DNA from: a virus
DNA: 64,000 nt
IMG/VR virus record: IMGVR_UViG_3300049845_000291
Span: 64,001 to 128,000 of that record
Strand: one strand, 5' to 3'
The position numbers and the translations under genes were made by a program. Below the pieces are notes generated by a model. It worked only from the letters and a program-made list of their open reading frames with translations. It was not told the origin of the DNA and did no database searches. Of the stretch, positions 41,140 to 63,632 are shown in pieces; the first letter of the stretch is position 1, and each line of letters begins with the position of its first letter.

Positions 41140-42765
41140 TCACGTGGTGTACTGTGTGTCTGAGAACACCTCGTTCGGCGTCAAGCCCTGCAACAGGAGC
41201 TGACCAATGGACAACCCGTGGTAGTGCGCCGCCACTGACTTCACTGGATCGTTCTTGATGTACTGCGCCAAGCCGATCCAGATCACCGCCAGCCAGAGGT
41301 AATGCACCTCGGTGAAGCGCTCCATGAGCAAAGCACAGCCGCCCAAATCCGGCTTGGGGATCTTGAACTTCATCCCCCAGCTCGCACCGTGAACGCCATT
41401 GTGGTCCAGATGGAACTCACGCGAGTAGTTGAACAGGTCGTACCCGCTGAGCGCGTACGCCAGCTTTGCGATGTCGTACTCTGGTACGCCGTACGTCTTG
41501 GTCTGACCAAAGTACCCGCGTGGATCGATCAGCGTGATCTCCAGCGTGTCGGGATCGATCATGCTGTTCGACATCTGCAGGTCACCATGGATCATGCTCA
41601 TGGTGTTGACGCCTTGGTAGTGCTTGGCGAGCTTCTCATACAGCCCGTTAATGATCTCCAGCGGAGACATGCGTAGGTACAGTCCATTGACGTTCTGAAC
41701 CGGGCCGAAGGCATCGATGACGCCAGCAATCTCACGGTACCGATTCAGGAGCTTCTCATGCGCCTCGATCTTGACATCACGCTGCACGATCTCGGTGGTG
41801 AACTCTTCCTTGATGCTGTGCAGCCTATCTGCTTGGTCAAAAAGGCGGCGCAGCACGAGGCGTCTGTTCTCAGCATCAAGGGTCCCCCAGTGCTGCCAGA
41901 CTGGGACACCTTTGACCTTGCTCATCACGAACGAGTCGCGGTCCATCGACACCCAGACCTTTGGCCGGCGGACCAATGTCCGCCGACGGTCGAGTTCCTC
42001 GTACCACGCGATCTCTTTCTTGATGAGCTGCTCGCCTTGGGTGTTCAACGCGCGCTTGAGCACCAGGTCTCCATGGATCTCAACCGAGTTGAACGAACGA
42101 GCGGCGTCGGCCGTTGAGCGAACGCGCTCAAGCTTTGGCTTGTCACCCCAGTCAATGATCGACGGCATGGGGAGCTGGAACACACCGTCCTTGGAGTACT
42201 GTGTAAGCAGCTCGACAAAGTCTTGGCCCTTGGTGTACGGCTTCGGGTGGTACTCAGCCACCGCGTACACACCGAAAAGCCCGCCACGACCGTCCTCTCG
42301 CAGCACTGGGACCTTGTGCTTGACACCGGGTCGATCAGCAAGATCGTATCGGTTTGGGTGATCGTAGTTCGTGAACGCGACGGCCTCGTGCCCAACAAGA
42401 TCCTCTGGGCGGAAGTGCTCACCAGGCAGCACATCACACCAGGTGAAGAGCACTGGACTGCCTTCAAGATGCTGGCATGAGCTGAAGATCGCGTGCGCCG
42501 AGCCATGCGCGCCATCGACTGTCACAACATGAAAGGGCAGCTCTGGTTGCGACGCCCCAAAGTACATGTTGTAGTACTCGCGGACCAGCGTCCGGTAGCT
42601 GGAGTGCACGATCACCGTGATTGAACTGGCGTACTGCGTCCAGTACTCGATCTGCTTGACAAAGCCAGTTTCCTTCCCGATGTTCACGAAGAACTTTGGG
42701 ATGTGGTTCGTGAGGGGAGCAAGGCGGCTTCCAAGCCCGCCGGCGACGATGACGACGTTCATCAT
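41140..42765 (-). CDS. Sugar-phosphate nucleotidyltransferase fused to APH/choline-kinase-like phosphotransferase
   Basis: N-terminal VAGGLGSRL.PLT..IPK and WCD; C-terminal HGDLQMSN, IDPRGYFG, YDIAKL. Confidence 0.88.
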   Translation of the reverse strand: MMNVVIVAGGLGSRLAPLTNHIPKFFVNIGKETGFVKQIEYWTQYASSITVIVHSSYRTLVREYYNMYFGASQPELPFHVVTVDGAHGSAHAIFSSCQHLEGSPVLFTWCDVLPGEHFRPEDLVGHEAVAFTNYDHPNRYDLADRPGVKHKVPVLREDGRGGLFGVYAVAEYHPKPYTKGQDFVELLTQYSKDGVFQLPMPSIIDWGDKPKLERVRSTADAARSFNSVEIHGDLVLKRALNTQGEQLIKKEIAWYEELDRRRTLVRRPKVWVSMDRDSFVMSKVKGVPVWQHWGTLDAENRRLVLRRLFDQADRLHSIKEEFTTEIVQRDVKIEAHEKLLNRYREIAGVIDAFGPVQNVNGLYLRMSPLEIINGLYEKLAKHYQGVNTMSMIHGDLQMSNSMIDPDTLEITLIDPRGYFGQTKTYGVPEYDIAKLAYALSGYDLFNYSREFHLDHNGVHGASWGMKFKIPKPDLGGCALLMERFTEVHYLWLAVIWIGLAQYIKNDPVKSVAAHYHGLSIGQLLLQGLTPNEVFSDTQYTT

Positions 42766-43385
42766 GCCACCCCACTTTCGGCCTTGAGCATCGCCCCAAG
42801 GGCACCGTCAGGGTGCAGCTTGAGGAAGTCCATGCGCTGGAAGTTCAGCCCATGCGAAACTTGGACCGCAATGCAGTCCAAGATGCACAGCAACGCGGTG
42901 GTGCTGGTAGTGGGAGCCAGCCCGTGCTCATCGCCCTCGACGACCGCTCCGATGCACAGCTCGCGGTGCACATGCGGATTTCGAGGCTTTGTTGGCTTGC
43001 AGTGAATCAGGATCTGCTTGACGTTCGGTCGAATGACCGTCACGTGCTGGATCGTCTCTAGCATCTCTCGAGTTGTGCCAGAACGCGAGATGTGGATAAT
43101 CAGATCCTCATGCCCGATATGACCGTAATCTCCGTGTCCGGTATGGGCGGTGTTTAGGTACAGAGACGGGATACCTAGGCTCGCCATGGTTTCGCTGATT
43201 TTGGCAGCGATGTTGGCGTTCTTGCCAACACCCGTGATGATCACACGAGCTCGATATTCTTTACGGGCCGTCTCGAGGACGTCTTGAACAATTGCTTCGT
43301 ATTCTGCTGAAGCAACGACAGGCTTCAGCGCCAAGAGCGCTGAAGCCTGTCGTTCAATGTTTGTAAGAGCTAGACTGTTACCCAT
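42762..43385 (-). CDS. SIS-domain sugar-phosphate isomerase (KdsD/GutQ arabinose-5-phosphate isomerase-like, no CBS)
   Basis: ITGVGKN, HGDYG, ISRSG.T.E, LAPTTST, F.KLHP.GALG. Confidence 0.88.
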   Translation of the reverse strand: MGNSLALTNIERQASALLALKPVVASAEYEAIVQDVLETARKEYRARVIITGVGKNANIAAKISETMASLGIPSLYLNTAHTGHGDYGHIGHEDLIIHISRSGTTREMLETIQHVTVIRPNVKQILIHCKPTKPRNPHVHRELCIGAVVEGDEHGLAPTTSTTALLCILDCIAVQVSHGLNFQRMDFLKLHPDGALGAMLKAESGVA

Positions 43386-43386
43386 G

Positions 43387-43419
43387 TTGCCTCCTAATCT
43401 AGGAGGCAATTGTAACCGA
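43387..43419 (-). promoter_or_regulatory. TACAAT -10 element plus 10-bp hairpin sequestering AGGAGG RBS
   Basis: Minus strand reads TCGGTTACAA-TTGCCTCCTA-GAT-TAGGAGGCAA-C-ATG (the -10's last T is the first base of the hairpin). Confidence 0.75.
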
Positions 43420-43473
43420 GACTAGCTCTCTATCAACTCAATTCTCGGATCAAGAAGTGCGAGGACTGGCGCT

Positions 43474-44217
43474 TCATTTGCGCTCGAACCTCGACAAGAT
43501 GTCCTTCCTGAACTTTTCCTCGGTGGAGCTCATCCACGACGCAGGCGCCACCCCGTCAGGTTCCAGGTACTCCATGATCGACATGTTGTGCGATCGGTTC
43601 AGGTACCAACCGGCGGCCAGGTGCTTCGCCTCCTCGATCGCGTCGCCGCCCAACAGGATCGCGAACATCATGATCTCGCGGTTGAAGTGCGAGAGCTGCT
43701 CGTGCAGGTGGTCGCTGAGCTGATGCCAGGCCTCGACGTTGTCGACGCTCGCCAGCACCATGACCGTGTACAGGGTGACCAATCTGGACTGGATGACGGC
43801 GGCATTGCGTTTGGCCTGGCGGAACGCGCCCTCAACTGTGTTGGTCTCCGTTTTGTACGGTTGCTTGGTGCAACCGGCGCCCTTCAGGCGGTCCAGGGCG
43901 GCCTTCGGCATGTCGAAGTACGGGAGCGCGGTGCTCTTCGAGCCGTGAATCAACAGCTCGTCGAGCCACTCGTCGATGAACTGCATGTACGGGTCAGTTT
44001 CGTCCTTCATGAACTTGGCGGGCCAATCGACCGAATTCATGATGGCATGACCTGAGACTGCGGCCAGCGAGTGCCGAGCCTTGAGCGCGAACTCCGGCAA
44101 GTTCCGTCGACCGACAAGATGCACACCGTTCAGGACGAACTTGAGCGCCTCGGACAGCAGGACGCAGCGGCCGATCAGCACCTGCCGATCGACCTGAGAG
44201 TTCAGGTACTCGTTCAT
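43474..44217 (-). CDS. Hypothetical helical protein
   Basis: 247-aa ORF with strong GC3 bias. Confidence 0.7.
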   Translation of the reverse strand: MNEYLNSQVDRQVLIGRCVLLSEALKFVLNGVHLVGRRNLPEFALKARHSLAAVSGHAIMNSVDWPAKFMKDETDPYMQFIDEWLDELLIHGSKSTALPYFDMPKAALDRLKGAGCTKQPYKTETNTVEGAFRQAKRNAAVIQSRLVTLYTVMVLASVDNVEAWHQLSDHLHEQLSHFNREIMMFAILLGGDAIEEAKHLAAGWYLNRSHNMSIMEYLEPDGVAPASWMSSTEEKFRKDILSRFERK

Positions 44218-44672
44218 GCGGCGACCTTGAAGAACAGCGGTTGTCGCGGGTCCATGTACTCGGTGTCGTACTTCTCGTCACCAGGGAAGTTGCCCTCCTT
44301 GTCAGGCATCACGATCTGCACAACCGGTACCGTGGTGCCGTAGTACTGATCAGCCTGCACGAAGTACTCCGTGCGCATGAGATCCTCGTTCTCGTTCGTG
44401 CGCTTGAACAGCACGGGGAGATTCGCCCAGCGCTCGTCCGGCAGATCGAACTGCAACGGCCAACCGTCACGGATCTTGGAGGCAACCTCGTTGATGATCA
44501 CGCACGCCAGGTCGGGGCGCAGGCCGACGATCATGAGCTCGAAGCCGAAGGCCTTGTCGCTGAACAGCCCGATCGTGTACGCGAACGGGTGCTTGCCATC
44601 GGCAACCCCGATCACCGTGTGCCCGTAGGAGCTGATGTCTTCGAGAATCTTGGCCAAGAGTCGGTCGTGCAT
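44214..44672 (-). CDS. DUF4262-like protein
   Basis: PFAYTIGL, EL...GL, QIVMPDKEG.FP. Confidence 0.8.
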   Translation of the reverse strand: MHDRLLAKILEDISSYGHTVIGVADGKHPFAYTIGLFSDKAFGFELMIVGLRPDLACVIINEVASKIRDGWPLQFDLPDERWANLPVLFKRTNENEDLMRTEYFVQADQYYGTTVPVVQIVMPDKEGNFPGDEKYDTEYMDPRQPLFFKVAA

Positions 44673-44674
44673 GA

Positions 44675-45025
44675 TCAGTTCTCCGTCAAAAAGTCGACCA
44701 AAAAGTGCGCGTCATCAGCCGTCAGCATCACCATGTTGCCGCGCGCGGCCTTGGCTAAGCTGATCAAGGTGATGGCGCGCTCGGAACGAAACGCTGACGC
44801 CAGCTCAATGTGCTTCAGGTCAGAGTTCCCGTTGCTCTTCATCCAGGAGTAGGCCTGCTCCCAGGTCTTGAAGCGGTTGCCGAACAAGGTGATTCGAGTC
44901 CCGACCATGCTCTCGCACAGCTGTCTGACCTCAACCTCAGCGCTGGCTCGCTCCTCGGCGAGATAACGCTCGCAGGCCGCCCGCAGTCGCTCGGGCTCGA
45001 TCACGGTGAAGCTCTTGATTCCCAT
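44675..45025 (-). CDS. Hypothetical protein
   Basis: In operon. Confidence 0.6.
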   Translation of the reverse strand: MGIKSFTVIEPERLRAACERYLAEERASAEVEVRQLCESMVGTRITLFGNRFKTWEQAYSWMKSNGNSDLKHIELASAFRSERAITLISLAKAARGNMVMLTADDAHFLVDFLTEN

Positions 45026-45495
45026 CACGCCAACCTGAAGGACTTGAGGAGCTTGATGAAGCTGTACTCGCTGGAACCTTGACCCCAGTTCCTGTTGGCG
45101 GCTGGGTTGTCGACGTTCACGTGCTCGTACGCCTCCGGAATGTTGGTCAGGCCATCCATGATCGGGCGAACATCGTACAGCTCGGCGGGCACGACCACCG
45201 CCACTGCCGTGGTGGCGCACGCCAAGGACGGTCCATCTTCCTTGAAACGCACGACGGGCAGGGTGAGGGCGTTCTCGGCCAACACCTGCAGAGCGGTGTA
45301 CAGGCCGTCCAGCTCCATGCTGTTCCCGCCGTTGCAGATGATGATGGTCTTGTGCTCATACGCCCAGCGCAGCGCCAGCTGTCGCTGGACCGTACGGTCC
45401 TCGTACTTGGTCAACATCTCGGAGACACAGTGCGCGGTCTGCAAACCGAGCTGCAGCTGCGACAGGTAGTAATTGGTGAAGGAGTACAGGCGCAT
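45025..45495 (-). CDS. Peptidyl-tRNA hydrolase type 2-like phage protein
   Basis: Y...N.YLS..Q.GLQTAH, W...HKTIIICNGG, F.ED..SL...TAV. Confidence 0.65.
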   Translation of the reverse strand: MRLYSFTNYYLSQLQLGLQTAHCVSEMLTKYEDRTVQRQLALRWAYEHKTIIICNGGNSMELDGLYTALQVLAENALTLPVVRFKEDGPSLACATTAVAVVVPAELYDVRPIMDGLTNIPEAYEHVNVDNPAANRNWGQGSSEYSFIKLLKSFRLA

Positions 45496-45944
45496 CACTT
45501 GTCCAGTTGTTGTTTCAAAGCTCGCTCTTGAATCTTTTGACGTTCGATCTTTTCCCACATGTCGGCGCAGTCGCTTTGGGTTTGCTTGATGTCGCCGACC
45601 GTGATTGGTCGTTGCCATTGCGCGGCACGGCGCACGATCGTGTTGTCAAAGCACGAGTCGGCCAGACGGGCTGCACGAATCTCCTCAGGCGTCGCATCAC
45701 GTGTGAGATGCCAGTTCCACATGAAAATGGAACCAAAGAAGAACACGATGACCTGTAAAATGGTGCCGCCCCAGAAACCGTCACTGCTCTTGTTCGCAAA
45801 GGTTCTAAACCAAGCGCGATAGAACCAGAAGACCCAGACCGGCGGCAGCAGGTACATGATGAAAGTTAGCACCTTCGTGATGACCAGCATCAGCCGCCTG
45901 GATCGTCTGATCCAGAGACGCTGGGTTGCAATCGACATCGACAT
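45495..45944 (-). CDS. Membrane protein
   Basis: Two TM helices. Confidence 0.6.
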   Translation of the reverse strand: MSMSIATQRLWIRRSRRLMLVITKVLTFIMYLLPPVWVFWFYRAWFRTFANKSSDGFWGGTILQVIVFFFGSIFMWNWHLTRDATPEEIRAARLADSCFDNTIVRRAAQWQRPITVGDIKQTQSDCADMWEKIERQKIQERALKQQLDK

Positions 45945-46126
45945 CACTTGTCCTTGAAGAACTTCGTGCCAAGCAGCGCGTTCACGGCAATCGATGCCAC
46001 GATGATCACGAAGGCCACCAGTGCGCCAAGGAGCATTCCATGTACAGGTCGACCGAAGACCAAGCCGGCCACACCGGTCAGCACCATCCAAAGGACAACG
46101 AAGGCGGTGATGAACGTGCGGTTCAC
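45944..46126 (-). CDS. Small membrane protein
   Basis: Two TM helices. Confidence 0.55.
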   Translation of the reverse strand: MNRTFITAFVVLWMVLTGVAGLVFGRPVHGMLLGALVAFVIIVASIAVNALLGTKFFKDK

Positions 46127-46127
46127 A

Positions 46128-46454
46128 TCAGTCTCCCGAGTCGATGTCGAAAGTCGAGTGACAATGCTTGCATGTGTACACCGTGTAGCACCTGCCAGCG
46201 CTGCGACCCGTGTATTCGTGCAGACAGCCTTGGTCTGTCCCTGGCCTGGTCTTGGTGTACCCCAAGGCCTTCATGGACATGGTCTGTCCGCCGCAGTTGT
46301 CGCAGGTCTTGGTGTCGGTATCGGGATCGTAGTATGACAGACCGCCCTTCCAGGTCCGCATCCAGGCGTCGCCATCCGCCAACTTGACGCGCGTCGTGCC
46401 ATTGCACGCAGGACAGACCGAGCAGCCTTTGGGGATTTCCAGGTTCGGGTTCAT
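46128..46454 (-). CDS. Cys-rich zinc-binding protein
   Basis: CPACNG, CDNCGG, CLH, CKHC. Confidence 0.7.
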   Translation of the reverse strand: MNPNLEIPKGCSVCPACNGTTRVKLADGDAWMRTWKGGLSYYDPDTDTKTCDNCGGQTMSMKALGYTKTRPGTDQGCLHEYTGRSAGRCYTVYTCKHCHSTFDIDSGD

Positions 46455-47842: not shown

Positions 47843-47882
47843 GAGTGGGCGAAGAATACAGGCATTAGGTGACAAATAGCGT

Positions 47883-50220: not shown

Positions 50221-50751
50221 TTACAACTTGACGGTGTTGTGCAGCGAGGCGGCGCGACGATCGAAGTAGTACGCGTCTTTGCCGGTTTTGATTGGTCGCC
50301 CCGGTGCGTTCAAGAGCTTCTTGAACGAGATCGCGCCCTTGTACTTAACCTCCTGATGCGAGGGGCTCGTGTACTCGAAGGAATGGATCAAGACGTCGCC
50401 ACCGTCCTTCACGATGTTGCTCCAGCACACATGCTCGTCCCAGGCGATGGTGTGGGTGCCGCTCAAGATGAGCTTTCCTCCCTGGCAGAACCAAGTCGCG
50501 GCCTTGTCGTCTTCAAGGATGCCATTCACGATACGGTCGTAGTTCGCCTTGCCAAACGACGGCTCAAAGGGCACCCCACGCCTGATGAGCTCCATGCTGT
50601 GCTCGTACTCAACGGCGAGACCCAATCGCCAGCGACCTTTGCGCTCCTCGTTCAAGATCCTGTGCGCTTGAGCCCAGAGCTCAGTTTCTTCGTTCGCGAG
50701 CTCTACCGCATCGTTGGTGATCGGCAGGATTTCGTTGTACTGCAGCCTCAC
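50221..50751 (-). CDS. Hypothetical protein
   Basis: GTGA overlap with methyltransferase. Confidence 0.6.
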   Translation of the reverse strand: MRLQYNEILPITNDAVELANEETELWAQAHRILNEERKGRWRLGLAVEYEHSMELIRRGVPFEPSFGKANYDRIVNGILEDDKAATWFCQGGKLILSGTHTIAWDEHVCWSNIVKDGGDVLIHSFEYTSPSHQEVKYKGAISFKKLLNAPGRPIKTGKDAYYFDRRAASLHNTVKL

Positions 50752-51566
50752 GCTTGAGCTCGACGGCGCCAGATCTTTGGCATCCGATTGAAGCCGTCAA
50801 AGACCTTGTCGAAATGCATCTCGATCGCCTTAGTGGTGATACGGCGGGCCTGTCGAAAGCCAACCAATCCATGCCCCTCGATATCGTACGTGTCGAAGTG
50901 CCCGATGTTTTCCGAGCTGCCATTAAAGCCGGAGCTCTCGGCCAAGTAACCACCAGGCTTCACGAGCCTGAGCAGCTCTCTCACGTGTGCCAGAGGATCG
51001 GTGTAGTGCTCAAGCACCTCGAATGACAACACCAGGTCGTATTGCTTCTCTGGAAAGGTGCTGTGCAGCTTAACGGGTGGCAGTCCGAAAAACTGCAGGG
51101 CGTGCTGCATGTACCTCGCCTGCGCCTCGTTATCGTTGAAAGCCTCGATTTTCTCGAAGCCATTGAGCTTCATGTGCGCCGTCGTAAGACCGCAACCGTT
51201 ATACATGTCTAGCACGTCCATCTCGGCCGGCTTTGCCCCCTCGTACCAGATCCCTTGAGTCACCCTGGTGTCAATAACACGGCCACCAATGACGTTTCCA
51301 GGCTTGTGGCGCCCGAAGTACTTGATTACCCCACCTGTGCAGGCCTTCGACTTCTCGAAGCAATGGATGCCCTCGTAGTTGTACTGCGGATCTCGATACA
51401 CCGAGTAGTCCGGCCGACCTGACTTCAGGGACGCGGTCCATTGGTCATGCAGGCGACTCTTGATCGTGAACATGTCGTCCTCAAGGTCAGCGTAAGTCTC
51501 GTACGACGTTCCTTCGAACGCGTTTGTGAGCTCGACGATTTCCTTCGGCGAGATGTTCGTTGTCAT
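50748..51566 (-). CDS. Class I SAM-dependent methyltransferase
   Basis: VLDMYNGCG, YDLVLSFEVLEH..DP, LVKPGG. Confidence 0.85.
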   Translation of the reverse strand: MTTNISPKEIVELTNAFEGTSYETYADLEDDMFTIKSRLHDQWTASLKSGRPDYSVYRDPQYNYEGIHCFEKSKACTGGVIKYFGRHKPGNVIGGRVIDTRVTQGIWYEGAKPAEMDVLDMYNGCGLTTAHMKLNGFEKIEAFNDNEAQARYMQHALQFFGLPPVKLHSTFPEKQYDLVLSFEVLEHYTDPLAHVRELLRLVKPGGYLAESSGFNGSSENIGHFDTYDIEGHGLVGFRQARRITTKAIEMHFDKVFDGFNRMPKIWRRRAQA

Positions 51567-51568
51567 AG

Positions 51569-53665: not shown

Positions 53666-54337
53666 TTACGAGAGCACGATGTACTTTGCGGTCTTGTCGC
53701 CTCGAGCCAGCAGCGCGGCGAAGCGGTGGTACCCGTCAATCAGACGCGGCGAGCCGTCAGGGCGGCGGTGAACAACGCCGACGGGAATTCCCGCCGCGAA
53801 CTCGTACTGCGTGCCGCGTTTGGCGCGCATGTACTCATCATTCCCCACGAGCCCATCGAGTGCCAGTTCTTCGATCTCGACGTTCTTGCACTCGTTGATC
53901 ACGTCGAGCACGAAGGAGTACTCAGCCTCCAGGACCTTGCGGATCTTTTGGAGGTCGCTCTCCAGGTTCAAGATCTCGTTGATTGCTGGCAACAGGTCGT
54001 GTGCACCCTCAAAGGTGATGTCGTCGATCTCTTCGCCGTAGTACCCACCCGTCACGGAGATGGAGAACTTTTCTGGCTCGTACGCCTTGTGCAGACGGAG
54101 CAGACGGTCGATGCAGTACATCTCAATCGTGCTGGCCGTGTCATGCACGAAACGGAGGCGCTTTCCTCCAGTCTGCTTTTGGACCTCGATCAGCCCCTCA
54201 AGATTTACTGAGGTGGTGCGCAGGTTCTCGTACCGACCACAGCGACAGATCGAGTCACAACCAGCTTCTTCGCAGTTCGTCACGTACTCATAGTCGTACT
54301 CGACCGCGTACCGGGCCTGAAGGGACGCCAACCTCAT
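53666..54337 (-). CDS. Protein with Cys cluster and C-terminal ParB/Srx-like motif
   Basis: CEEAGCDSICRC; LIDGYHRFAA. Confidence 0.6.
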   Translation of the reverse strand: MRLASLQARYAVEYDYEYVTNCEEAGCDSICRCGRYENLRTTSVNLEGLIEVQKQTGGKRLRFVHDTASTIEMYCIDRLLRLHKAYEPEKFSISVTGGYYGEEIDDITFEGAHDLLPAINEILNLESDLQKIRKVLEAEYSFVLDVINECKNVEIEELALDGLVGNDEYMRAKRGTQYEFAAGIPVGVVHRRPDGSPRLIDGYHRFAALLARGDKTAKYIVLS

Positions 54338-54813
54338 CGAATTCCCCTTGGATGCAGCATGATGGCCTTGATTCGCTCGATGCCAAGATCAAGATCATCA
54401 AAGAGCTCCAGATGTTGGAACATCGAGCACAGCACCTGGACATTCCCGCGCCGCCAAAAGCCAGGTGGGCAGACCACCACCGTCCGTACCCCAACGCCAG
54501 CCAGAAGCCCAAGCTCCAGCAGTGAGATCGGTGATTGGGTGCCAGGCTGCAAGTACATCAGCACTGCCGTGCTGGTGCGAATGTAGTCCAGCTCCCACCG
54601 CACCTGGGTCTCAAACTCCTTGTTTGTGATGTCTTGGACCCATGACGCGTTCCACACCGGCCGGCGAGGATTCAAGACCGTGCAGTCAAGATCTGCTAGC
54701 TCGCTGATGACGCGTGCTTGCCAGTCTACAGCTAGGCCCTGTTCAATCGAACCGGCCAAGAACACAGCCGGCGGCGACACCGCGCCGCGCTCTGGAGCGA
54801 CTAGGACCTTCAT
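54334..54813 (-). CDS. Nucleoside 2-deoxyribosyltransferase-like protein
   Basis: VFLAGSI, DWQ, NPRR, QVRWE, SPISLLELG. Confidence 0.85.
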   Translation of the reverse strand: MKVLVAPERGAVSPPAVFLAGSIEQGLAVDWQARVISELADLDCTVLNPRRPVWNASWVQDITNKEFETQVRWELDYIRTSTAVLMYLQPGTQSPISLLELGLLAGVGVRTVVVCPPGFWRRGNVQVLCSMFQHLELFDDLDLGIERIKAIMLHPRGIR

Positions 54814-55091: not shown

Positions 55092-55312
55092 GATGACCTC
55101 ACTTGACTTTGTTCAACGATTTGAAGGAGCGCCTTCAGCCGCTCCGCGAACTGACCAATCTCTTCAGGATTGATCGACCAGCGTTGTGTTTGCAGCACGA
55201 TGTACGGACCGCCTCCTGCATCGGCGATCTCAACGTGCAGCTCATGAATAGGTTCATTGCTGCAGCTGTCAGGATCTTGCGTCAGCAGGAACTTGGCACC
55301 ATCTATCCTCAT
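55088..55312 (-). CDS. Hypothetical protein
   Basis: In operon. Confidence 0.55.
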   Translation of the reverse strand: MRIDGAKFLLTQDPDSCSNEPIHELHVEIADAGGGPYIVLQTQRWSINPEEIGQFAERLKALLQIVEQSQVRSS

Positions 55313-55986
55313 CGATAGATCTCCGAACGGTTGTTGCGGATCACAACAACCTGCTGGAAATCAGTGAGCGCCTTGTCCAGGTCTTCACCTGAGAGGACCC
55401 CGTCCCAGATCATGCCATTGCCCCAGCCCCGTTCCTCATCGAGGACTGATTTGAGACGCTTGTTGTTGGTGTCGACTATCTTGCGAATCCTGGCCGTGAG
55501 CGACCGCATGGAGCACTCCCCGAGCTCCCCGTAGATCGCGCGAATGATCTCTTGAGAGGTGCGATCGGTCAGCCGCTGAAGCCTGACCGGTTCAGGTGTG
55601 CTCACGTACAACGTCACCATCTGCCAGCCCTTGGAGCCACAGTACTTGCGGTAGATCTCAAGGCCATTGGGCTCCAAGATCACGATTGGGGGAGGAAGAC
55701 CGGGTGCCAGCTTCGACTCCATCTCCTTGTGTGTCACCCCGTACCGCACACCGTTGAAGGTCACCAGCTCGGCAAAGAGCCCCTCAGCCTCCATTTCACG
55801 AGAGCGATCGGTCGTGATGAAGAAGTAATCAACGCCTTCACGCTCATCGACACGAGGCATGCGGTCCGTTGTGCTGACGATTCGTTCACACCCAAGCTTC
55901 GTGACCAGCGCCTCAAGGAGGTAGCTCTTTCCAGAGCAAGTTGGTGCGGTGATCGTGATTAGGGTCGGGTACTTGAATTTGATCAT
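55309..55986 (-). CDS. Guanylate kinase-like NMP kinase
   Basis: APTCSGKS, VSTTDRMPRVDEREGVDYFF, YG. Confidence 0.88.
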   Translation of the reverse strand: MIKFKYPTLITITAPTCSGKSYLLEALVTKLGCERIVSTTDRMPRVDEREGVDYFFITTDRSREMEAEGLFAELVTFNGVRYGVTHKEMESKLAPGLPPPIVILEPNGLEIYRKYCGSKGWQMVTLYVSTPEPVRLQRLTDRTSQEIIRAIYGELGECSMRSLTARIRKIVDTNNKRLKSVLDEERGWGNGMIWDGVLSGEDLDKALTDFQQVVVIRNNRSEIYR

Positions 55987-56498: not shown

Positions 56499-56758
56499 CA
56501 GTCGTACTCGTGCAGCTCTTCATCTTCGTCGTCGCCACCGCGCATCGCGCTCTTGATCTCGGCATCAGACATCGGCTGGAAGCCAACGACGGTGCCGCAA
56601 TCTAGGCAGATCTCCATGTCAATGTAGTCACCGCCACAGACACCAGTGATGTCAGGCGGATAGTCGTCGCGCTCGAGCCGCAGGTGCGGCACAGACGTGA
56701 AGCACAGGTCGTTGACCTTGCCGTTGATGCTCAGAACTCGGGTGTGGTTGCAGGCCAT
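56498..56758 (-). CDS. Small Cys-containing hypothetical protein
   Basis: GGDY....CLDCG. Confidence 0.6.
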   Translation of the reverse strand: MACNHTRVLSINGKVNDLCFTSVPHLRLERDDYPPDITGVCGGDYIDMEICLDCGTVVGFQPMSDAEIKSAMRGGDDEDEELHEYD

Positions 56759-57876
56759 TTGAAGGTGCTCAGGGTGTTGACGAAGTTCTCGCAGAACTGA
56801 ACTGGATCCCAGCCAAGGGCCAGCCGCTGTTCCTCGATGATGGTTTGACGGGTCTCCGGCGAGCTCTTGATCAACCGTAGCAGGTCAACCAGCATCGCCT
56901 GGTCCCTGACGTACAGATACTCATGCGCCGCGGTGCCTTTCGGGTAGATCCGTCGGCTCTTGTCGATGTTGGCGTCGATGAACACGATGTTCCCAGCGGC
57001 GATGCACTCGGCAACGCGCTGTGGAATCAGATCGAGGCTCTCGTACGATGGGTCACCAGTCACCAGATGCGCCAGCGCGCCTTGCATCTTTGGCAGTACG
57101 TCGCCGTACTTCACCATACCAGTGAACTGCGGGTACCGCTTGACAGGAAGCTTGCCGATCTTCGGATGCTTCTCGAAGTCGGTCTCGTCGATCTTACCGA
57201 AGATCTCAACGCTGATGTCGTCTGGCAGACCACAGTACCACTTGTACAGGTTTGGGATGCGCCGGCCGCCGCGTGCGGTTCCGCCGTACATCAGGTCAAC
57301 GGTGGGGTGCTCAGCAGGCGGCAGCCACGGGTTGAGCAGCGGGAATCGATCCATTGGGTAGTGCACGATCTGCCCAAGGGGGACGCCTTTCTTTGGCCAG
57401 TCCGCCTTCACGGCGAGCAGCGCGTACGGTTGCGAGACCAAGTGGATCGGCTTCTGGATCAGGATCTCGTCTTTGGTGTACTTCGTGCCCCACGGCTTCT
57501 TCTCGACGTTCTCCCAGATCTGAACGAACGGCAGCTCCGGATCACACATCAAGTACACCACCGGGCCAGTGAACGTGTTGATCAGCCGGTAGTTCGCGAT
57601 CTGCTCGGCGTCCTCAGCGCCACCGAAGAAGTTCACGTTCCCGTTGATGACGCACAACACATCCAGCTGCTGCAGCACCGATGGATCTGTCTCCATGATC
57701 TGGTGCCAGTGCAGGCTCTCGTGCAGAGTGTCCTTCTTCAGGATTTTGGTGAACACGTGCACCTCAGCGCCACCATTTCGCAGGGCCTTGCAGATGCTGA
57801 TGGCCTCACCCGAGGTCACTGAGTTGTCAAGGTCCCACAGAATGCGGGCACCCAGCTTCAAAACACCGATCTTCAT
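56731..57876 (-). CDS. DNA beta-glucosyltransferase-like glycosyltransferase (T4 BGT homologue)
   Basis: Collinear with T4 BGT motifs: MKI..., SGE (T4 SSE), NFFGG, DPELPF (T4 DIRLPF), W.NV..KPW, D..YGG..R.G.R, FTG, GD..Y, RV.E. Confidence 0.88.
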   Translation of the reverse strand: MKIGVLKLGARILWDLDNSVTSGEAISICKALRNGGAEVHVFTKILKKDTLHESLHWHQIMETDPSVLQQLDVLCVINGNVNFFGGAEDAEQIANYRLINTFTGPVVYLMCDPELPFVQIWENVEKKPWGTKYTKDEILIQKPIHLVSQPYALLAVKADWPKKGVPLGQIVHYPMDRFPLLNPWLPPAEHPTVDLMYGGTARGGRRIPNLYKWYCGLPDDISVEIFGKIDETDFEKHPKIGKLPVKRYPQFTGMVKYGDVLPKMQGALAHLVTGDPSYESLDLIPQRVAECIAAGNIVFIDANIDKSRRIYPKGTAAHEYLYVRDQAMLVDLLRLIKSSPETRQTIIEEQRLALGWDPVQFCENFVNTLSTFKWPATTPEF

Positions 57877-58475
57877 CAGTTCTCCAGGGCCTCAGCAATG
57901 ATGTCTTCTTTGCGGCGGAAACCACCAACGCCGCGATCAGTGACACACACGACGCGCTTGTCGCGGATGATCGAGCTCTCGAAGGCCGCCATGAACAGCT
58001 CTTGCTCTTTCTCGCGCTTCGTGATGTCAAAGGACTCGCCATCATCAACGAAATGCGATGAGACCGAGAAGTCCTCAGTCAACAGGATCAGCCGGATGCT
58101 GCCAACCTCATGCAACCGGAAGGCCCGCTCGAGCTCAAACACGTACGCGCCGTCATACCCACGGTACAGCGGTGCGTACACGTTCTCACCGAGATGCGCT
58201 CGGTTGCAGATCATGTGCGCGTACGGGGCCGAGGACAGCATCGTGAACAGGTTCCTGAACGAGCGTTCCTGGTACTCGCGCAGGGCGTACATGCGCTCCT
58301 CGGTCTCGTTCAGGTTCTGACGATGGTACGGACCACCAAGATAGCAGCTCAGGACCTTGGGCTTCGAGAAATGCAGGACCTCGTGGTACCCACGCTTGTG
58401 CAGGATCCCGTCAATCAGGGTGTCCTTGCCAAGACGGTCCAGGCCCTCAATCAGGTACTTGTTCACGACACTCAT
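57876..58475 (-). CDS. Thymidylate-kinase-like dNMP kinase
   Basis: IEGLDRLGKDT; NRAHLGENVYAPLYRGY. Confidence 0.8.
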   Translation of the reverse strand: MSVVNKYLIEGLDRLGKDTLIDGILHKRGYHEVLHFSKPKVLSCYLGGPYHRQNLNETEERMYALREYQERSFRNLFTMLSSAPYAHMICNRAHLGENVYAPLYRGYDGAYVFELERAFRLHEVGSIRLILLTEDFSVSSHFVDDGESFDITKREKEQELFMAAFESSIIRDKRVVCVTDRGVGGFRRKEDIIAEALEN

Positions 58476-58768
58476 GGGATGGTGATCTCCAGAAAGTTAT
58501 GAGACACGCGGTCGATGCGGTTCCCGTTTGCGTCCATGATCTCGACGTGGAAGTCGACCGTGTCACATGCCGCCAGCATGAACTTGTCGTCTCTGATGTT
58601 CTCGATCTTATCAATGAGCTGGAACGCTGCTTCCCGGTACTTGTTCCCACGCCCAAGACGAATGCAGCACACCAGCGCCGAGATCAACTCAAGCTCCTCA
58701 ACCGAGAGGGCATGCAGCGACAGCGTGCCCTCTTCCTCATCGGGCCTGGAGCTGATGACCCGAGTCAT
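58472..58768 (-). CDS. Hypothetical protein
   Basis: In operon. Confidence 0.55.
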   Translation of the reverse strand: MTRVISSRPDEEEGTLSLHALSVEELELISALVCCIRLGRGNKYREAAFQLIDKIENIRDDKFMLAACDTVDFHVEIMDANGNRIDRVSHNFLEITIP

Positions 58769-58769
58769 G

Positions 58770-59930
58770 TCAGAAGCCGATTTTCCTGGTACGACGCTGC
58801 ACGCTGACGCGCTGACCGAAGATCTCAGCCAACGTGAACTCCGAGCCATCACGCAGGTCGATGCCAACGTCCGACGCCACGTTCAAGGCCTCAGCGCGAG
58901 TCATTGGCCGGAACTCGACCACATCGAAGCAACGACCCGGACGCATGAGCGCCTCGTCGATGTCACGGATCGACGGCAGGTTCGTGCTGAACACGAGCTT
59001 CTTGCCTTCAGCGCTGATCAGACCATCAGACACGTTCAGGAACCGGTGCATCATCGTGTTCCCATCAGTGCGCGCCTTGAGGAACGTGTCTGCGTCCTCC
59101 ATGATCATGAACCTGGTATCGCTCTCGATGAAGTTCGCGAAGATCCCGTCGCTGTTCATGACGCGCTCATCGTACGTGACCTTGGCATCGCCACCTGAGC
59201 GGTGGATCAGGTTCTTGATGAAGGTCGTCTTGCCGGTGCCAGGCGGGCCGATCAAGATCAGCACACTGGCCGAGCTGTTCAGGTACTCGTCGATGTACTC
59301 GGGCAGCGGCTTCGGCAGCCACGGGTACGCCGAGTTGATCGCCGGGCGGAAGTTCAGCGGCACGTTGATGCTGTTTCCGCGCTCGTTGTACACCCACTCG
59401 ATCAGGTTCTCGGCACGCTTGTACATGCCGTCCATGCGCTCAACGAAGGCCTTGACCTCCTTTGGGTCGCCGTTGAGCTCCAGATCAAGCTTGCCACGCT
59501 GCAGGGCAGCCTCAACCATGCCCCAAGGGAACAGCATGACCGCACGGTTTGGCGAGAAGAAGTTGTACCGCTCCGTCAGGTCGGTGACCCAGTCACGAAG
59601 CTGGATCGTGACATCGATCATCCATGTACCCTCTTGCGCCAAGGTGTTACGGTTGTTCTCGAGCGAGCTCCGCATGAACGAGGAAGCCAGCCACTCATCC
59701 GGACCGTACGCGCCAAAGATCACGCCGGTGTCGATGTTGTTTTCATTCATGAGATGTGCATCATCCATGCAGGTGTCAAGATGGTCTCTATTGATCAGAG
59801 GACGTTCACGTTTGATTCGACGACGGCGCTTATCAACGCGTCTGACAGCCTGTAAACCTGTGGTTTTAGTGCTTCGCCTGATTCGACCGAGATCAACTGG
59901 GTCGAGGTCGATGTCATCATCGTCATCCAT
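58770..59930 (-). CDS. AAA+ ATPase
   Basis: GPPGTGKT, IMEDAD, FLNVSDG, STN, ALMRPGR. Confidence 0.9.
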   Translation of the reverse strand: MDDDDDIDLDPVDLGRIRRSTKTTGLQAVRRVDKRRRRIKRERPLINRDHLDTCMDDAHLMNENNIDTGVIFGAYGPDEWLASSFMRSSLENNRNTLAQEGTWMIDVTIQLRDWVTDLTERYNFFSPNRAVMLFPWGMVEAALQRGKLDLELNGDPKEVKAFVERMDGMYKRAENLIEWVYNERGNSINVPLNFRPAINSAYPWLPKPLPEYIDEYLNSSASVLILIGPPGTGKTTFIKNLIHRSGGDAKVTYDERVMNSDGIFANFIESDTRFMIMEDADTFLKARTDGNTMMHRFLNVSDGLISAEGKKLVFSTNLPSIRDIDEALMRPGRCFDVVEFRPMTRAEALNVASDVGIDLRDGSEFTLAEIFGQRVSVQRRTRKIGF

Positions 59931-59971
59931 TTGAGCATTGTACGCGATCGACTTTGTTCTGGAACTTGAAT

Positions 59972-61711
59972 TTAGGTTCCAAGCATGGACACAAACCGGG
60001 TATCGAACTCGTCACTCCACTCGTTATTCTTTGCTGTCCACAAGCGTTGGATGTTTGTGTCCAGGAAGTACGTGGTGGCCCAGTCCTCAGGCGACCGAAC
60101 CGAGCGACCAGCGCCCTGGACCAGCTTCATGGTGCACAGCAGGTTGTAGATGTCTGGCCATTTGTCGAGGATCTCTTTCATGCGCGCTTCACCCAGCGAT
60201 CCAAATGGGGCCTTGACGATGATCTGGTACCTGCTCAGATCACCAGCAAGGTCAAGGCCCTCAAAGCCACTTGGCGTCAGCAGGATCGCCGGGCCCTTGT
60301 GGTTCTTGAAGGTCTGCAGTACGTCGGCCAGCTTCTGGCCACGCTGGTGCTCAACGAGCCGGGTGTTGAGCCCCATGCCTTGGAGCATCTGCGCGATGCC
60401 CTCGGTCAGCGCAAACGACGGCGCCAGCACGATGCCGCGCTCGCCCTTGTCCGTGTGGTGCTTTGCGATCTCATACACCGTGGCTTGAAGCTTCTTGACG
60501 ACTGATGGCTCCTTGAGTGTGCTGTAGCTCAGGTTCTGCGGCTTGTAGAACAGGACCTTCTTGTTCTCACGTGGAAAGGTCGGTGGCAGGCGCACGTGCT
60601 TAGCATTATCGAGGGTCAGCGTGCGACGCGCGTACTGCTCGCTGAGCGTGGCGCTCATCAGCAGGTTGTACCGAGCGTTGATCAGGTTCTCGAACATGTC
60701 GCCAACGAAGATCGGCTTGACGCTGACCTCGTGCTCGTGCTGCCCGTATTTTGGCTCCTTCGGCTTGTACTCGAAGGCGTGCGGGTACCCGTACTCGATC
60801 AGGTCGTTGATCTTGCACCCGAGGCCATGGTACTTCTTGGACAGCCGAGACAGCTCTAGGTACTTCTTCTGGTTGTGGATCGCCCTTTCGGCTTGGTTTC
60901 GCGCGGCCTCATGAACTTGGCCGTACGCATCAGCCAAGGCCATCAGGTGCTGCATGTAATTGTCACGTGTGATGTCACCCGAGATCAGATCGCCGGCCAC
61001 GTTCCGCAGGATCTTGAAGACCTCGGTGCTGCCAAGGGTCAACGTCTGGTTGATCTCCTCCGCCATCTTCTTGAGCCGAGAGTCGCTGAAGTAGATCGCG
61101 TTGTGCTCAGTGAACAGGTCGTTCAGCATGTGTGCTTCATCGAACACGCACACCGTGCGAGCCGGAAGCATCTGCGTGAACATCCGGTCGATGAAGTAAT
61201 AGGAATAGTTCGTGATCAGGTGCCGAGCCTTGTCACGCATCCGCTTCTGGAGCGCGAAATCGCAGCCGTCACAGAAGATCTTGATCTGCTCATCCATACC
61301 CTCCTTCTGGAACAGACGGAGGGCACAGACCTCAGCGGTCTGAACCTCAGATGGCGTGCTCAGGGCGGCGCACTCGAAGTTCCCAGCGCCCTTGAACATC
61401 CTGAACCGGGTATCAAGCGGATCACGTCCTTCTTGGAAGGTCCGATGGTACTGCTCACTGAGCACGTTCGTCGGTGTCAACAAGAAGCTGGCGCCGACGT
61501 GGGCATCTGGGTGGTGCAGTCGATGCAGTGCCTCGGCAACCACCGCGCCGATGATGGACTTGCCAGTGCCAGTTGGCGCTGATAGGATCACGGTCTTGTG
61601 TCCCTCATCGAGGAACGACGTCAGGATGGTGTTGATGTCCTGCACCTGTCTTCCGCGCGGCTTGTACCCGACCGCGTCATAGGCCTCAATGATTTGCTTT
61701 TCGTATTTCAT
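59972..61711 (-). CDS. DinG/XPD-family (SF2) helicase
   Basis: Q motif, APTGTGKS, four Cys for Fe-S, DEAH, EGLD, QGAGR.VR. Confidence 0.9.
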   Translation of the reverse strand: MKYEKQIIEAYDAVGYKPRGRQVQDINTILTSFLDEGHKTVILSAPTGTGKSIIGAVVAEALHRLHHPDAHVGASFLLTPTNVLSEQYHRTFQEGRDPLDTRFRMFKGAGNFECAALSTPSEVQTAEVCALRLFQKEGMDEQIKIFCDGCDFALQKRMRDKARHLITNYSYYFIDRMFTQMLPARTVCVFDEAHMLNDLFTEHNAIYFSDSRLKKMAEEINQTLTLGSTEVFKILRNVAGDLISGDITRDNYMQHLMALADAYGQVHEAARNQAERAIHNQKKYLELSRLSKKYHGLGCKINDLIEYGYPHAFEYKPKEPKYGQHEHEVSVKPIFVGDMFENLINARYNLLMSATLSEQYARRTLTLDNAKHVRLPPTFPRENKKVLFYKPQNLSYSTLKEPSVVKKLQATVYEIAKHHTDKGERGIVLAPSFALTEGIAQMLQGMGLNTRLVEHQRGQKLADVLQTFKNHKGPAILLTPSGFEGLDLAGDLSRYQIIVKAPFGSLGEARMKEILDKWPDIYNLLCTMKLVQGAGRSVRSPEDWATTYFLDTNIQRLWTAKNNEWSDEFDTRFVSMLGT

Positions 61712-61950
61712 CAGATGGCCCGAATTTCGGCGATGAAGGTGTCAGCCCCAGTGTCGCCACTAAAGAGCCATTCTACCTCCTTCATCACCAGTGCCATTTC
61801 ACGCGCGCGGCTCACGATCACCTCGAGTTCCTCGAGCACCTCAGGGCCGAAGTCCTGAACCCACTCCTTGTCGCCACGTAGGTCGCGTTCCAGCTCGTCT
61901 GCGAACTGGTGCACGCGCATGTACGCGTAATCAAAGTGCCCACCGCTCAT
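61711..61950 (-). CDS. Hypothetical protein
   Basis: MSGGHFDY...EWLFSGD motif; AGGGG SD. Confidence 0.7.
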   Translation of the reverse strand: MSGGHFDYAYMRVHQFADELERDLRGDKEWVQDFGPEVLEELEVIVSRAREMALVMKEVEWLFSGDTGADTFIAEIRAI

Positions 61951-61984
61951 GAAAGCCCCTTGTGCTAAATAGGCCATAATCTAT

Positions 61985-62668
61985 ATGACCGTCACTATGA
62001 ACCACTACACCTATTGTATTGTTTTCCCAGCTATTCCACGACTTTATATCGGGGTTAGGTCTTACAATGGCCCGCCAACTCAGGACGACTACCGCTCTTC
62101 ATCGAAGAAAGTGAAGGCTCTCATCAAGGAAGGTTTTCAATATACCATCTCCATAATCGCCACACACGCCACTCGTGCAGAAGCAGAGGCTGAAGAGATT
62201 GCTCTCCATGATATTTTCGATGTTGCGCGTAATCCATATTTCCTGAATGGCGCCAAGGCCAGACATGGAGGCTTCACACGCGCTGGGGTTCCTTCTGATC
62301 AGAAAGGCCGAACTTATGAGGAACTCTTCGGCATCGAAGAGGCGGCGCGTAAGAGACTCAACTTACAGCAAAAGTTGAGGAACAGGGTCTTCTCGAAAAA
62401 GACTAAGGCCAAAATGGCTGCCTCACACGCAGATGTATCAGGCCCACTAAACCCTCGTGCTATTTCTGGAGCCTTGGAACTTTCTGGCAAGATCCTTTTG
62501 GAATATCAGACAAAAGCTGAACTTGTTCGGTGGTGCCTTGACAATGATGTTCCGCACCGCCCTATCCTAAGGCTTAGGACAGGCGATGCTTATCTGCCCA
62601 ACATCACCCCGCGTAATGCGAAGTTCAAGCGTTGGTTTGGTCTTCGTGTTCTGGAACCCCAAAGATAA
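61985..62668 (+). mobile_element. Free-standing GIY-YIG homing endonuclease
   Basis: YTY...LYIGVR...YRSSS; NUMOD3-like SKKTKAKMA; TAAATA 61966-61971; AT-rich codons; overlaps convergent gene. Confidence 0.85.
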
Positions 62669-63632
62669 CGTGCATGGCTTCATCACGTTCACCAAAACAC
62701 ATTAGCACGAGATTCTGCCAATAAGGTGTAAGCAATTCCCATGCGCCAACGTCCTCAAACGCGAAATCCTTGCTGGCACCGGCAGCCTGCCAAGCAGCTT
62801 CAATTCCAACAAGCCCCGTGAGAATTTCATCTGAAAAAACGTCCATCTTGATCATCGGCATCTCAAGTGCGCGTTCGTCTTTGATGATGGCCTCAGCCAT
62901 AGAAAAATGGCGCGAGTAAATGTGCATCGAGCCAGCGTTGTGGTAGTACACGCCAAGCTCCAGATCAGGCCAGTGCCGACGAAGCTCGAGCATCATGGCC
63001 TCCTGCAGCATGGTGAACTGGAAGACATCGTTCGTGAACCCGAGGATGATGTCGTTCGATCGCATGTTCACGATCAGGTGCAGCCGGTTCTCACGAATCA
63101 ACCACTGCAGCGTGAAGGTGCAGGGCACGTCCTTGTTGCCCACGTGCCGATCACTCGGCACGTGGATGCTCATCACGGCTTGACGGGTGTCCTTGTCGCG
63201 GGCCAGGGCCAGGATGGTCTCCTGCCACTGGTTGATGGGCTCAGGCTTGGACAGCGTGCTGGCTTTGGTGCTGAATGCAGGCAGCTTACTGTGTCCGAAC
63301 AGCCGGGTGCCGTAGTTCGAGTTCACGGTACCGGCGGGATAGAGCTCATTGTCACCTAGGTTCCGAATGCCGTCCCAGAACTTGGCGTACGGCAGAATGC
63401 CGGCTGGGTCGTTTGAGCCGCTGATGTACCAGATGAACTCGCCAAGCAAGTACTTCAGGCTGGTCTTGCGGTCGGCATAGTTGATGATCCGATTTCGTGG
63501 ATCACCGAGCGTGATGTTGTAGTTCAGGAGCTCCTTCGTCGTGGTGCCCCGTGGGTGCGATTCCATACCGTGATGCATCAGATGCATCAGGCAGGTGCGA
63601 AAGTCATGATTGAGTTGGTTGTTTTGCTGCAT
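62625..63632 (-). CDS. dCMP hydroxymethylase-like enzyme (T4 gp42 family, thymidylate synthase fold)
   Basis: NSNYG, D..TRQA, DVPCT, NMRSND..LGF.ND (Asp where ThyA has Asn), GSMHIYSRHF. Confidence 0.88.
   Translation of the reverse strand: MQQNNQLNHDFRTCLMHLMHHGMESHPRGTTTKELLNYNITLGDPRNRIINYADRKTSLKYLLGEFIWYISGSNDPAGILPYAKFWDGIRNLGDNELYPAGTVNSNYGTRLFGHSKLPAFSTKASTLSKPEPINQWQETILALARDKDTRQAVMSIHVPSDRHVGNKDVPCTFTLQWLIRENRLHLIVNMRSNDIILGFTNDVFQFTMLQEAMMLELRRHWPDLELGVYYHNAGSMHIYSRHFSMAEAIIKDERALEMPMIKMDVFSDEILTGLVGIEAAWQAAGASKDFAFEDVGAWELLTPYWQNLVLMCFGERDEAMHVIFGVPEHEDQTNA

Follow-up and report, generated by a model that had tools for sequence, protein, structure and literature searches.

Possible transfer of phage-made arabinose to 5-hydroxymethylcytosine by a T4 beta-glucosyltransferase homologue in an uncultured jumbo phage

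Which sugar does a phage attach to its DNA when it encodes both a homologue of the T4 beta-glucosyltransferase (BGT) and its own genes for an activated pentose? This question is raised by a 64,000-nucleotide stretch of viral DNA (hereafter, the window). It consists of bases 64001-128000 of the 152,208-bp IMG/VR record IMGVR_UViG_3300049845_000291. The best available reading is a BGT-fold enzyme with a phage-made pentose donor. More precisely, we give even chances to a phage that replaces cytosine by glycosylated 5-hydroxymethylcytosine (5-hmC), with phage-made arabinose transferred by the BGT homologue. A broader proposal is more tentative, and we hold it at somewhat less than even. In it, an uncultured phage clade of ~310-345 kb makes arabinosyl-5-hmC, and its BGT has switched donor to uridine diphosphate (UDP)-arabinose. 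Considering the cassettes of sister lineages, the BGT scaffold may then support several new DNA sugars. The initial annotation had assigned five genes to the pathway, and all five open reading frames (ORFs) are intact, on the minus strand:

41140-42765, minus strand: AfhE-type bifunctional enzyme of 541 amino acids (aa), with an N-terminal sugar-1-phosphate nucleotidyltransferase and a C-terminal APH-like sugar kinase (PF00483, PF01636, phrog_4098 7e-107)
42762-43385, minus strand: SIS-domain D-arabinose-5-phosphate isomerase (KdsD/GutQ catalytic domain, no CBS domains), as RB69 gp55 (PF01380 2e-10, phrog_5670 2e-72)
56731-57876, minus strand: T4 BGT-family DNA glycosyltransferase of 381 aa, the proposed 5-hmC arabinosyltransferase (PF09198 4.6e-26, phrog_7922 3.9e-49)
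57876-58475, minus strand: Tmk-like nucleotide kinase of 199 aa, likely a kinase of 5-hydroxymethyl-deoxycytidine monophosphate (5-hm-dCMP), translationally coupled to BGT (P-loop, DR motif, structural model)
62625-63632, minus strand: second gene of the thymidylate synthase (TS) fold, a predicted dCMP hydroxymethylase of 335 aa with a T4 gp42-type signature (PF00303 3e-24, active-site residues)

What base would carry the sugar? In TS homologues, N177D selects dCMP, an acidic residue at position 143 (L143D/E) goes with a non-methyl product, and D169N marks the 5-hydroxy-dCMP synthases. The D169N rule was validated with diverse enzymes, and nine of nine gave 5-hydroxydeoxycytidine (5-hydroxy-dC) (PMC13326640). 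We numbered the residues as in E. coli ThyA, in an alignment (A1) with E. coli ThyA, T4 gp42, and RB69 gp48. The second TS homologue reads KDVPCT...MRSNDIILGFTND. It keeps C146 and D169 (RSND) and presents the substitutions L143D and N177D (GFTND). T4 gp42 reads MRSNDVVFGFRND and RB69 gp48 reads MRSQNCAVVMQLD; the second TS homologue follows the gp42 pattern. At position 169, the mark of the 5-hydroxy-dCMP synthases, RB69 gp48 has asparagine and the window protein has aspartate. It shares 28% identity with T4 gp42 (E 5e-18) and 22% with RB69 gp48 (E 1e-7), and scores far under every NCBIfam ThyA equivalog cut-off. D169 and N177D are present in every relative examined.

The window also has a bona fide ThyA, a contrast gene outside the cytosine pathway:

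30302-31234, minus strand: ThyA, 48% identical to E. coli ThyA (TIGR03284)

This protein keeps L143, D169, and N177, reads PFN, and scores 267 bits with TIGR03284 against a cut-off of 108. The alignment confirms N177D as the dCMP-specifying aspartate that had been read from GFTND versus PFN. L143D and N177D, with D169 kept and no D169N, point to 5-hmC as the predicted base. By the published residue criteria, the favoured product of the enzyme is 5-hm-dCMP. So, of the two bases initially offered, hydroxymethyl- or hydroxycytosine, the former is favoured. The latter is disfavoured, since D169N is lacking.

The BGT homologue matches T4 BGT from end to end, and the description as full-length was right. 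Its residues 1-350 align with residues 1-327 of T4 BGT (PDB 1bgt; phmmer E 1.8e-34). The AlphaFold model (pLDDT 92) superposes on T4 BGT with TM 0.79-0.86. Foldseek finds 1nzd/1qkj at E 3e-24, and the next GT-B glycosyltransferase at only 4e-9, fifteen orders of magnitude behind. The amino acids E24, D112, R202, R206, and R287 (T4 E22, D100, R191, R195, and R269) are invariant in 44 homologues (alignment A3). E290 (T4 E272) is kept in the window BGT and nearly all homologues, and LR756500 has replaced it with Q. In T4 BGT, we take D100 to be the catalytic base, with E22, and R191, R195, R269, and E272 to bind UDP. Since these catalytic and UDP-binding residues are kept, a UDP-sugar donor is expected, and AfhE-type enzymes make a UDP-sugar. 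The genomic context argues for UDP-arabinose as the probable donor. Subclade-specific substitutions are seen at window residues 20, 273, 282, 296, and 298 (T4 residues 18, 256, 264, 278, and 280), among others.

The BGT and kinase genes share one base (..CTGATGAAG), which is the 1-nt overlap initially described. The kinase has the P-loop EGLDRLGK and a DR motif, and matches RB69 gp45 by hhalign (96.4%, E 1.2e-9). Its model (pLDDT 93.7) has as top PDB folds the Aquifex thymidylate kinase 2pbr and YorR 2axp/3kb2. The same PDB neighbours (2pbr/4s35 and 3kb2) are reported for DLP3 gp78 and RB69 gp45; Lee et al. describe this 'nucleotide kinase' as adjacent to the first transferase gene of DLP3, RB69, and RL38J1 (PMC13326640). 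The initial term, dNMP (deoxynucleoside monophosphate) kinase, is right as to the kinase. By its fold and the RB69 gp45 match, however, it is of the thymidylate-kinase type and not of the T4 gp1 type. The kinase adjoins BGT throughout the whole clade.

Where would the arabinose come from? RB69, DLP3, and related phages put arabinose directly on 5-hydroxycytosine, a base made by a flavin-using TS homologue. Their UDP-arabinose is supplied by an arabinose-5-phosphate isomerase, the AfhE kinase/pyrophosphorylase, and the AfhF HAD phosphatase, and a GT4-like enzyme transfers it (PMC13326640, PMC13390438). The window isomerase is 52% identical to RB69 gp55 (E 6e-64), with partial matches to NCBIfam KpsF/GutQ and KdsD. 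It starts at ATG 43385, as claimed before, preceded by an AGGAGG site. The full-length fusion overlaps it by 4 nt. This protein is 29-34% identical to RB69 gp53 (N-terminal domain) and gp52 (C-terminal domain), and shares with them the intact motifs GGLGSRL..PK, IHGDLQMSN, and IDPRGYFG. By these features, it is a predicted AfhE-type arabinose-5-phosphate kinase/UDP-arabinose pyrophosphorylase. The operon of a KdsD-like isomerase and a nucleotidyltransferase-kinase at 41140-43385 is thus well founded. Just upstream of the isomerase, a 247-aa ORF (43474-44217, minus strand) was discarded as a pathway member. It has no Pfam or PHROG match, its Atlas model is helical and of low confidence, and it is absent from the related contig G001.

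Do these genes travel together? The record is linear, with 57% GC and a CheckV completeness of 43%, and is a fragment of an uncultured phage of roughly 340 kb. G001, a 331,776-bp contig rated 94% complete, is syntenic with the record, and the proteins share 40-80% identity. Other syntenic relatives have 311-343 kb; one presents terminal repeats and is rated 100% complete. With relatives of these sizes, the label 'GC-rich jumbo-type phage' is correct. The closest isolate is Ralstonia phage RsoM2USA (344 kb).

We searched with a BGT-homologue profile, which recovered 44 IMG/VR loci. In six relatives (G001, G002, G003, G005, G006, and G007), BGT is 56-63% identical to that of the window. All of them have an AfhE-type gene (E 1e-57 to 1e-117), truncated in G002. 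The isomerase is likewise present in six of six, by tblastn in the five fetched loci and by whole-genome comparison in G001. A seventh relative of the group is an uninformative 13.7-kb fragment and was left out of the count. The operon-bearing BGTs and that of the window form one clade in the maximum-likelihood tree (support 95/98, stem 0.48). Conversely, no full-length AfhE gene was found where BGT is at most 49% identical, including complete genomes of 154-429 kb, RsoM2USA, and LR756500. The complete genomes G014, G017, G026, and G043 gave zero matches to the fusion family phrog_4098. In G022, a full-length fusion is lacking, and the only match is a partial one of 60 residues (E 3e-7). BGT and the TS homologue are kept in RsoM2USA and LR756500; the former has no isomerase or AfhE gene, and the latter no AfhE gene. 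The co-occurrence check that the initial annotation had named therefore finds the operon in every informative relative of the subclade, and finds it absent in more distant ones. The five genes are thereby supported as a coherent set that is inherited together. With a single gain in one lineage, the pattern shows co-inheritance and not independent co-evolution.

The two BGT subclades differ in their TS subtype, KDV[PA]CT (loci L005, L033-L038) versus the T4-like SDFMCT (L039-L048). Between subclades, the TS homologues are only 27-34% identical, and neighbouring genes 45-50%. This divergence above that of the neighbours suggests a replacement of the hydroxymethylase gene between subclades. The KDVPCT-type subtype is also found in RsoM2USA, LR756500, and G019 (L050), the last being only 25% complete.

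A sister lineage, G020/G023 (BGT 44-45% identical), has another cassette at the position of the arabinose operon (L135:4245-8698, that is, G020:C1:30244-34697; a syntenic ORF lies in G023, L136). It encodes a cupin 'mannose-6-phosphate isomerase C-terminal' protein, a 502-aa fusion of nucleotidyltransferase and APH-kinase, a shikimate-dehydrogenase-like protein, and a GatZ/KbaZ-like protein. In G020, two DUF6071 proteins and a GDSL-like hydrolase flank the cassette. It may provide another phage-made nucleoside diphosphate (NDP)-sugar for DNA. This difference is a hint at pairings of the BGT scaffold with at least two phage-made sugars.

The pathway genes are dispersed across 22 kb, with the sugar operon 14 kb from BGT. 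All lie inside a minus-strand block for replication and nucleotide metabolism. This block includes topoisomerase II subunits, UvrD-like and DEAD-type helicases, ThyA, guanylate kinase, RNA ligase, Tpt1, and a Fpg/Nei-like glycosylase. Is the sugar operon expressed with the base-synthesis genes? Of the 13-mer TCGGTTACAATTG, the 152 kb contain two copies and no more, against an expectation of 0 from shuffles. They stand only before the TS homologue and the isomerase:

63657-63669, minus strand: promoter-like 13-mer, exact copy, ~25 nt upstream of the hydroxymethylase start
43407-43419, minus strand: second exact copy, ~22 nt upstream of the isomerase ATG (43385)

The relaxed motif GTTACAAT (TCG(G)TTACAAT) has five copies. 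The others, at positions 51080, 52504, and 62293 of the record (minus strand), precede the DsbA-like/family-B DNA polymerase (PolB) operon and the DnaB-like helicase operon. A related motif is kept before the hydroxymethylase orthologues in L005, L033, L035, and L037. Likewise, TCGGTTACAAT is kept before the isomerase in L033, L034, L036, and L037. The motif also precedes the BGT operon in G001; two loci of the operon-less subclade lack it. Since the motif is common to the sugar operon, the hydroxymethylase, and the replication operons, the sugar operon is apparently expressed together with the genes for replication and base synthesis, which speaks against a late role directed at the virion.

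How could the enzymes act together? The TS homologue would convert dCMP to 5-hm-dCMP using folate, as its active-site residues suggest. The Tmk-like kinase, with host kinases, would bring it to the triphosphate, which the phage polymerase would incorporate. By homology to RB69 gp55, the SIS isomerase would convert ribulose-5-phosphate to arabinose-5-phosphate. The AfhE-type fusion would phosphorylate C1, some phosphatase would remove the 5-phosphate, and UDP-arabinose would form; this follows the homology to RB69 gp52:53 and to HY126 AfhE, as given in PMC13326640. Finally, the T4-BGT-family enzyme would flip hmC out and add arabinose from UDP-arabinose, to give arabinosyl-5-hmC. This is the weakest step of the scheme. 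With this base, the DNA would be protected against restriction enzymes and CRISPR nucleases.

Is another transferase available for this last step? The RB69-type arabinosyltransferase family phrog_3891 had no match in the contig, though the control genomes gave none either. With RB69 gp46 and gp47, tblastn against the contig returned nothing at E<=1. In the near-complete, operon-bearing G001, G005, and G007, we found no GT-A and no RB69-type arabinosyltransferase; G006 carries one GT-A. A second GT-B of 357-380 aa is present in G001 (C1:128217-129359), G005 (C1:237594-238667), and G007. It is split by a frameshift in G006 (C1:44739-45790), absent from G017, and also present in the operon-less G014, G022, and RsoM2USA. 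Its similarity ignores the operon, with 43% between G005 and G014 and 34% between G005 and G001. BGT is the only recognisable transferase that is intact in all four near-complete operon-bearing genomes searched, and for this reason it is favoured as the arabinosyltransferase. Comparing G005 with G014 and G017 gave 164 subclade-specific ORFs, of which many are antisense artefacts. No transferase or sugar enzyme is among the ten that were run against Pfam, and a search with three Pfam GT families gave no transferase specific to the subclade either.

Several points weigh against a BGT that transfers arabinose. Every known phage-DNA arabinosyltransferase is GT4-like and acts on 5-hydroxycytosine, not on hmC (PMC13326640). 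The donor specificity of the BGT homologue is not readable from sequence. The enzyme is ~45% identical to those of operon-less relatives, a divergence no greater than that of neighbouring genes. The co-occurrence is a single gain in one clade, so kinship alone may explain it. Only 43% of the genome is in the contig, and the second GT-B of the relatives could use arabinose. No MazG-type dCTPase (deoxycytidine triphosphatase) was found in operon-bearing genomes; a dCMP deaminase is present in relatives, outside this contig. Finally, the AfhF-type phosphatase used by HY126, RB69, and DLP3 according to PMC13326640 (AfhF/gp51, a HAD phosphatase, phrog_1238) gave no match at E<=10 in the 152-kb contig or G001, with positive controls. 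The step from arabinose-1,5-bisphosphate to arabinose-1-phosphate is therefore without an assigned enzyme.

Two sets of phosphatase candidates were rejected. The best relaxed-tblastn match of RB69 gp51 lies inside a 2918-aa structural gene and is spurious. A HAD-motif scan of G005 and G001 gave only NT5C-like and HAD_SAK_2-like proteins, which are unrelated to AfhF; they were discarded, being outside the contig of the window and having weak homologues in the operon-less G017. In G005, the HAD_SAK_2 phosphatase gene (236745-237365) lies beside the second GT-B.

Could two sugars be involved? In an alternative that we consider unlikely, BGT would use UDP-glucose of the host, as it does in T4 and, presumably, in relatives of the RsoM2USA kind. 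Another transferase would add arabinose as a second sugar or on a subset of the bases, resulting in mixed glucosyl and arabinosyl hmC. This enzyme could be the GT-B of the relatives, or one that was not recognised in the missing 57% of the genome. The unchanged catalytic and UDP-binding residues of BGT and its ordinary divergence across subclades agree with this arrangement, and so does the existence of the GT-B in G001, G005, and G007. Moreover, T2/T6, RB69, and DLP3 use separate enzymes for successive sugars (PMC13326640, PMC13390438). Nevertheless, the same GT-B occurs in three operon-less genomes, is frameshifted in the operon-bearing G006, and does not follow the operon in its similarity. 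Neither the Pfam GT families nor the ten ORFs gave a transferase specific to the subclade.

We judge it quite improbable that the base itself differs, with a TS homologue that makes 5-hydroxy-dCMP despite D169. The product would be arabinosyl-5-hydroxycytosine, as in RB69, and a BGT-family enzyme would have replaced the GT4-like one. All experimentally known arabinosylated phage DNAs are indeed on 5-hydroxycytosine (PMC13326640, PMC13390438). The TS homologue of the subclade is also a distinct subtype (KDVPCT), distant from the gp42-like type of the operon-less subclade, and the D169N rule is drawn mainly from Straboviridae. On the other hand, D169 is found in every member, with the RSND..G..ND string of T4 gp42. 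The nine D169N enzymes of the validation were diverse and all gave 5-hydroxy-dC, and the same TS subtype exists in RsoM2USA and LR756500, both without the sugar genes. There is similarly little probability that the operon has nothing to do with DNA. It would then serve glycosylation of virion proteins, interference with host Kdo (3-deoxy-D-manno-octulosonic acid)/lipopolysaccharide, or another small molecule, and BGT alone would make glucosyl-hmC. Arabinose-5-phosphate is also the precursor of Kdo. The distance of 14 kb to BGT and the phosphatase missing from the contig and G001 fit such a role. However, the characterised member of the fusion family makes UDP-arabinose for DNA arabinosylation. 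The promoter-like motif before the operon is rare and conserved, and also stands before the hydroxymethylase, DNA polymerase, and helicase operons; moreover, the operon lies within the replication and nucleotide-metabolism block.

How does this set of genes, read as a BGT homologue that carries phage-made arabinose to 5-hmC, compare with known systems? In 2018, arabinosyl-5-hmC was reportedly assigned, wrongly, to RB69. The initial annotation had RB69-type phages arabinosylate cytosine, and this has to be corrected. The base is 5-hydroxycytosine, with a D169N flavin-type TS and GT4-like transferases (PMC13326640). It had further described the phage as a combination of the two schemes. Both gene sets are present, but this is no simple merger, since D169N, AfhF, and the RB69-type arabinosyltransferase were not found in the contig.

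With T4, the window shares the TS homologue with L143D/D169/N177D, a full-length BGT, a kinase gene beside the transferase, and a separate ThyA. In contrast to T4, its kinase is Tmk-like and not gp1-like, and no alpha-glucosyltransferase or MazG-type dCTPase was found. It carries UDP-pentose genes of its own, for which T4 has no need, and belongs to a ~340-kb jumbo phage and not to Straboviridae. With the Afh systems of RB69, DLP3, and HY126 (PMC13326640, and Mahler et al. 2025 as cited there), it shares the isomerase, the AfhE-type fusion, and the Tmk-like kinase beside the first transferase. Compared with these systems, it differs by having no D169N, no AfhF/gp51 found in the contig, a transferase of the BGT family and not GT4-like, and genes spread over 22 kb and not in one cluster. 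Rhizobium phage RL38J1 (Pootjesviridae) has a comparable set, with a phage NDP-sugar tailoring gene, a Tmk-like kinase, a transferase, and a TS homologue, in a modular 'glycodiverse' design. However, it makes hexosylated 5-hydroxycytosine (D169N), with galactofuranose/glucose and non-BGT transferases (PMC13326640).

In the nearest deposited genomes, RsoM2USA and the uncultured phage LR756500, the genes for BGT (41% and 36% identical), for a TS homologue of the same subtype (36%), and for the Tmk-like kinase are close neighbours. Unlike the window, these genomes lack the sugar genes named above. Their pathway genes are all annotated as hypothetical proteins. We know of no report on the DNA chemistry of these two phages. 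Among deposited phages, BGT-family matches come from Tequatrovirus, Enterobacter, Citrobacter, Salmonella, Serratia, Enterococcus, and Lactobacillus phages and two large phages. AfhE-type matches come from RB69-like coliphages, T4-like Acinetobacter phages, and others. Among the matches listed, no deposited record has both genes, the two lists not being intersected in full. Coliphage G3F6, with a weak BGT-like match, was rejected as an overlap: it has an ordinary Tequatrovirus locus without arabinose genes. In the literature searched, we found no description of hmC/BGT genes combined with UDP-arabinose genes. A BGT homologue search at E<=1e-10 gave 201 clusters. Of the 120 listed, some 70 share at least 55% identity with the window BGT, and several of these are on 300-340-kb contigs; the lineage is therefore widespread and uncultured.

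The neighbourhood of the pathway genes presents further features. One of them is a syntenic BGT neighbour in both BGT subclades:

55309-55986, minus strand: guanylate kinase (PF00625 1.2e-12)

Between BGT and the helicases, at 54334-54813 (minus strand), lies a nucleoside 2-deoxyribosyltransferase-like gene (PF15891, 1e-29), which is kept in G001 and L131. Given that no dCTPase was found, its product could be a putative dNMP N-hydrolase that helps to deplete dCMP. Directly downstream of the sugar operon (39434-40453, minus strand) is a Fpg/Nei-family DNA glycosylase of 339 aa, with N-terminal and H2TH domains. It is kept in G001, and this family is unusual in a phage. An S-adenosylmethionine-dependent methyltransferase within the pathway region (50748-51566, minus strand) is not conserved in G001.

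The window also contains an RNA-repair-like set, consisting of a T4 Rnl1-type RNA ligase (20333-21478, minus strand), Tpt1/KptA (31234-31752, minus strand), and PhoH (18644-19462, plus strand). The Tpt1/KptA RNA 2'-phosphotransferase is directly upstream of ThyA, in the same transcription direction. At 24213-26273 (minus strand), a 686-aa protein matches at its C-terminus the C-terminal domain of Chlamydia Pgp3 (PF05475, 1.6e-6); G001 has no homologue. Outside the window, at 13129-27787 and 135097-151822 of the record, there are four giant ORFs (2830, 2067, 3362, and 1992 aa). The 2830-aa protein is kept in all relatives, with 34-51% identity.

What would arabinosyl-5-hmC mean for phage biology? 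The known glycosylated phage cytosines form two lines, glucose on hmC in T-even phages and arabinose or hexoses on 5-hydroxycytosine in RB69, DLP3, and RL38J1. If the proposal is true, there would be a third base, which joins hmC and a BGT-family transferase to phage-made UDP-arabinose. Moreover, a BGT-family enzyme would for the first time have a donor other than glucose. BGT is a standard reagent for mapping 5-hmC, so a relative that accepts another donor could be useful in practice. For recognition of the new base, hosts would have to possess other type IV restriction or glycosylase defences. Finally, sugar cassettes would move between unrelated phage families independently of the enzyme that makes the base.

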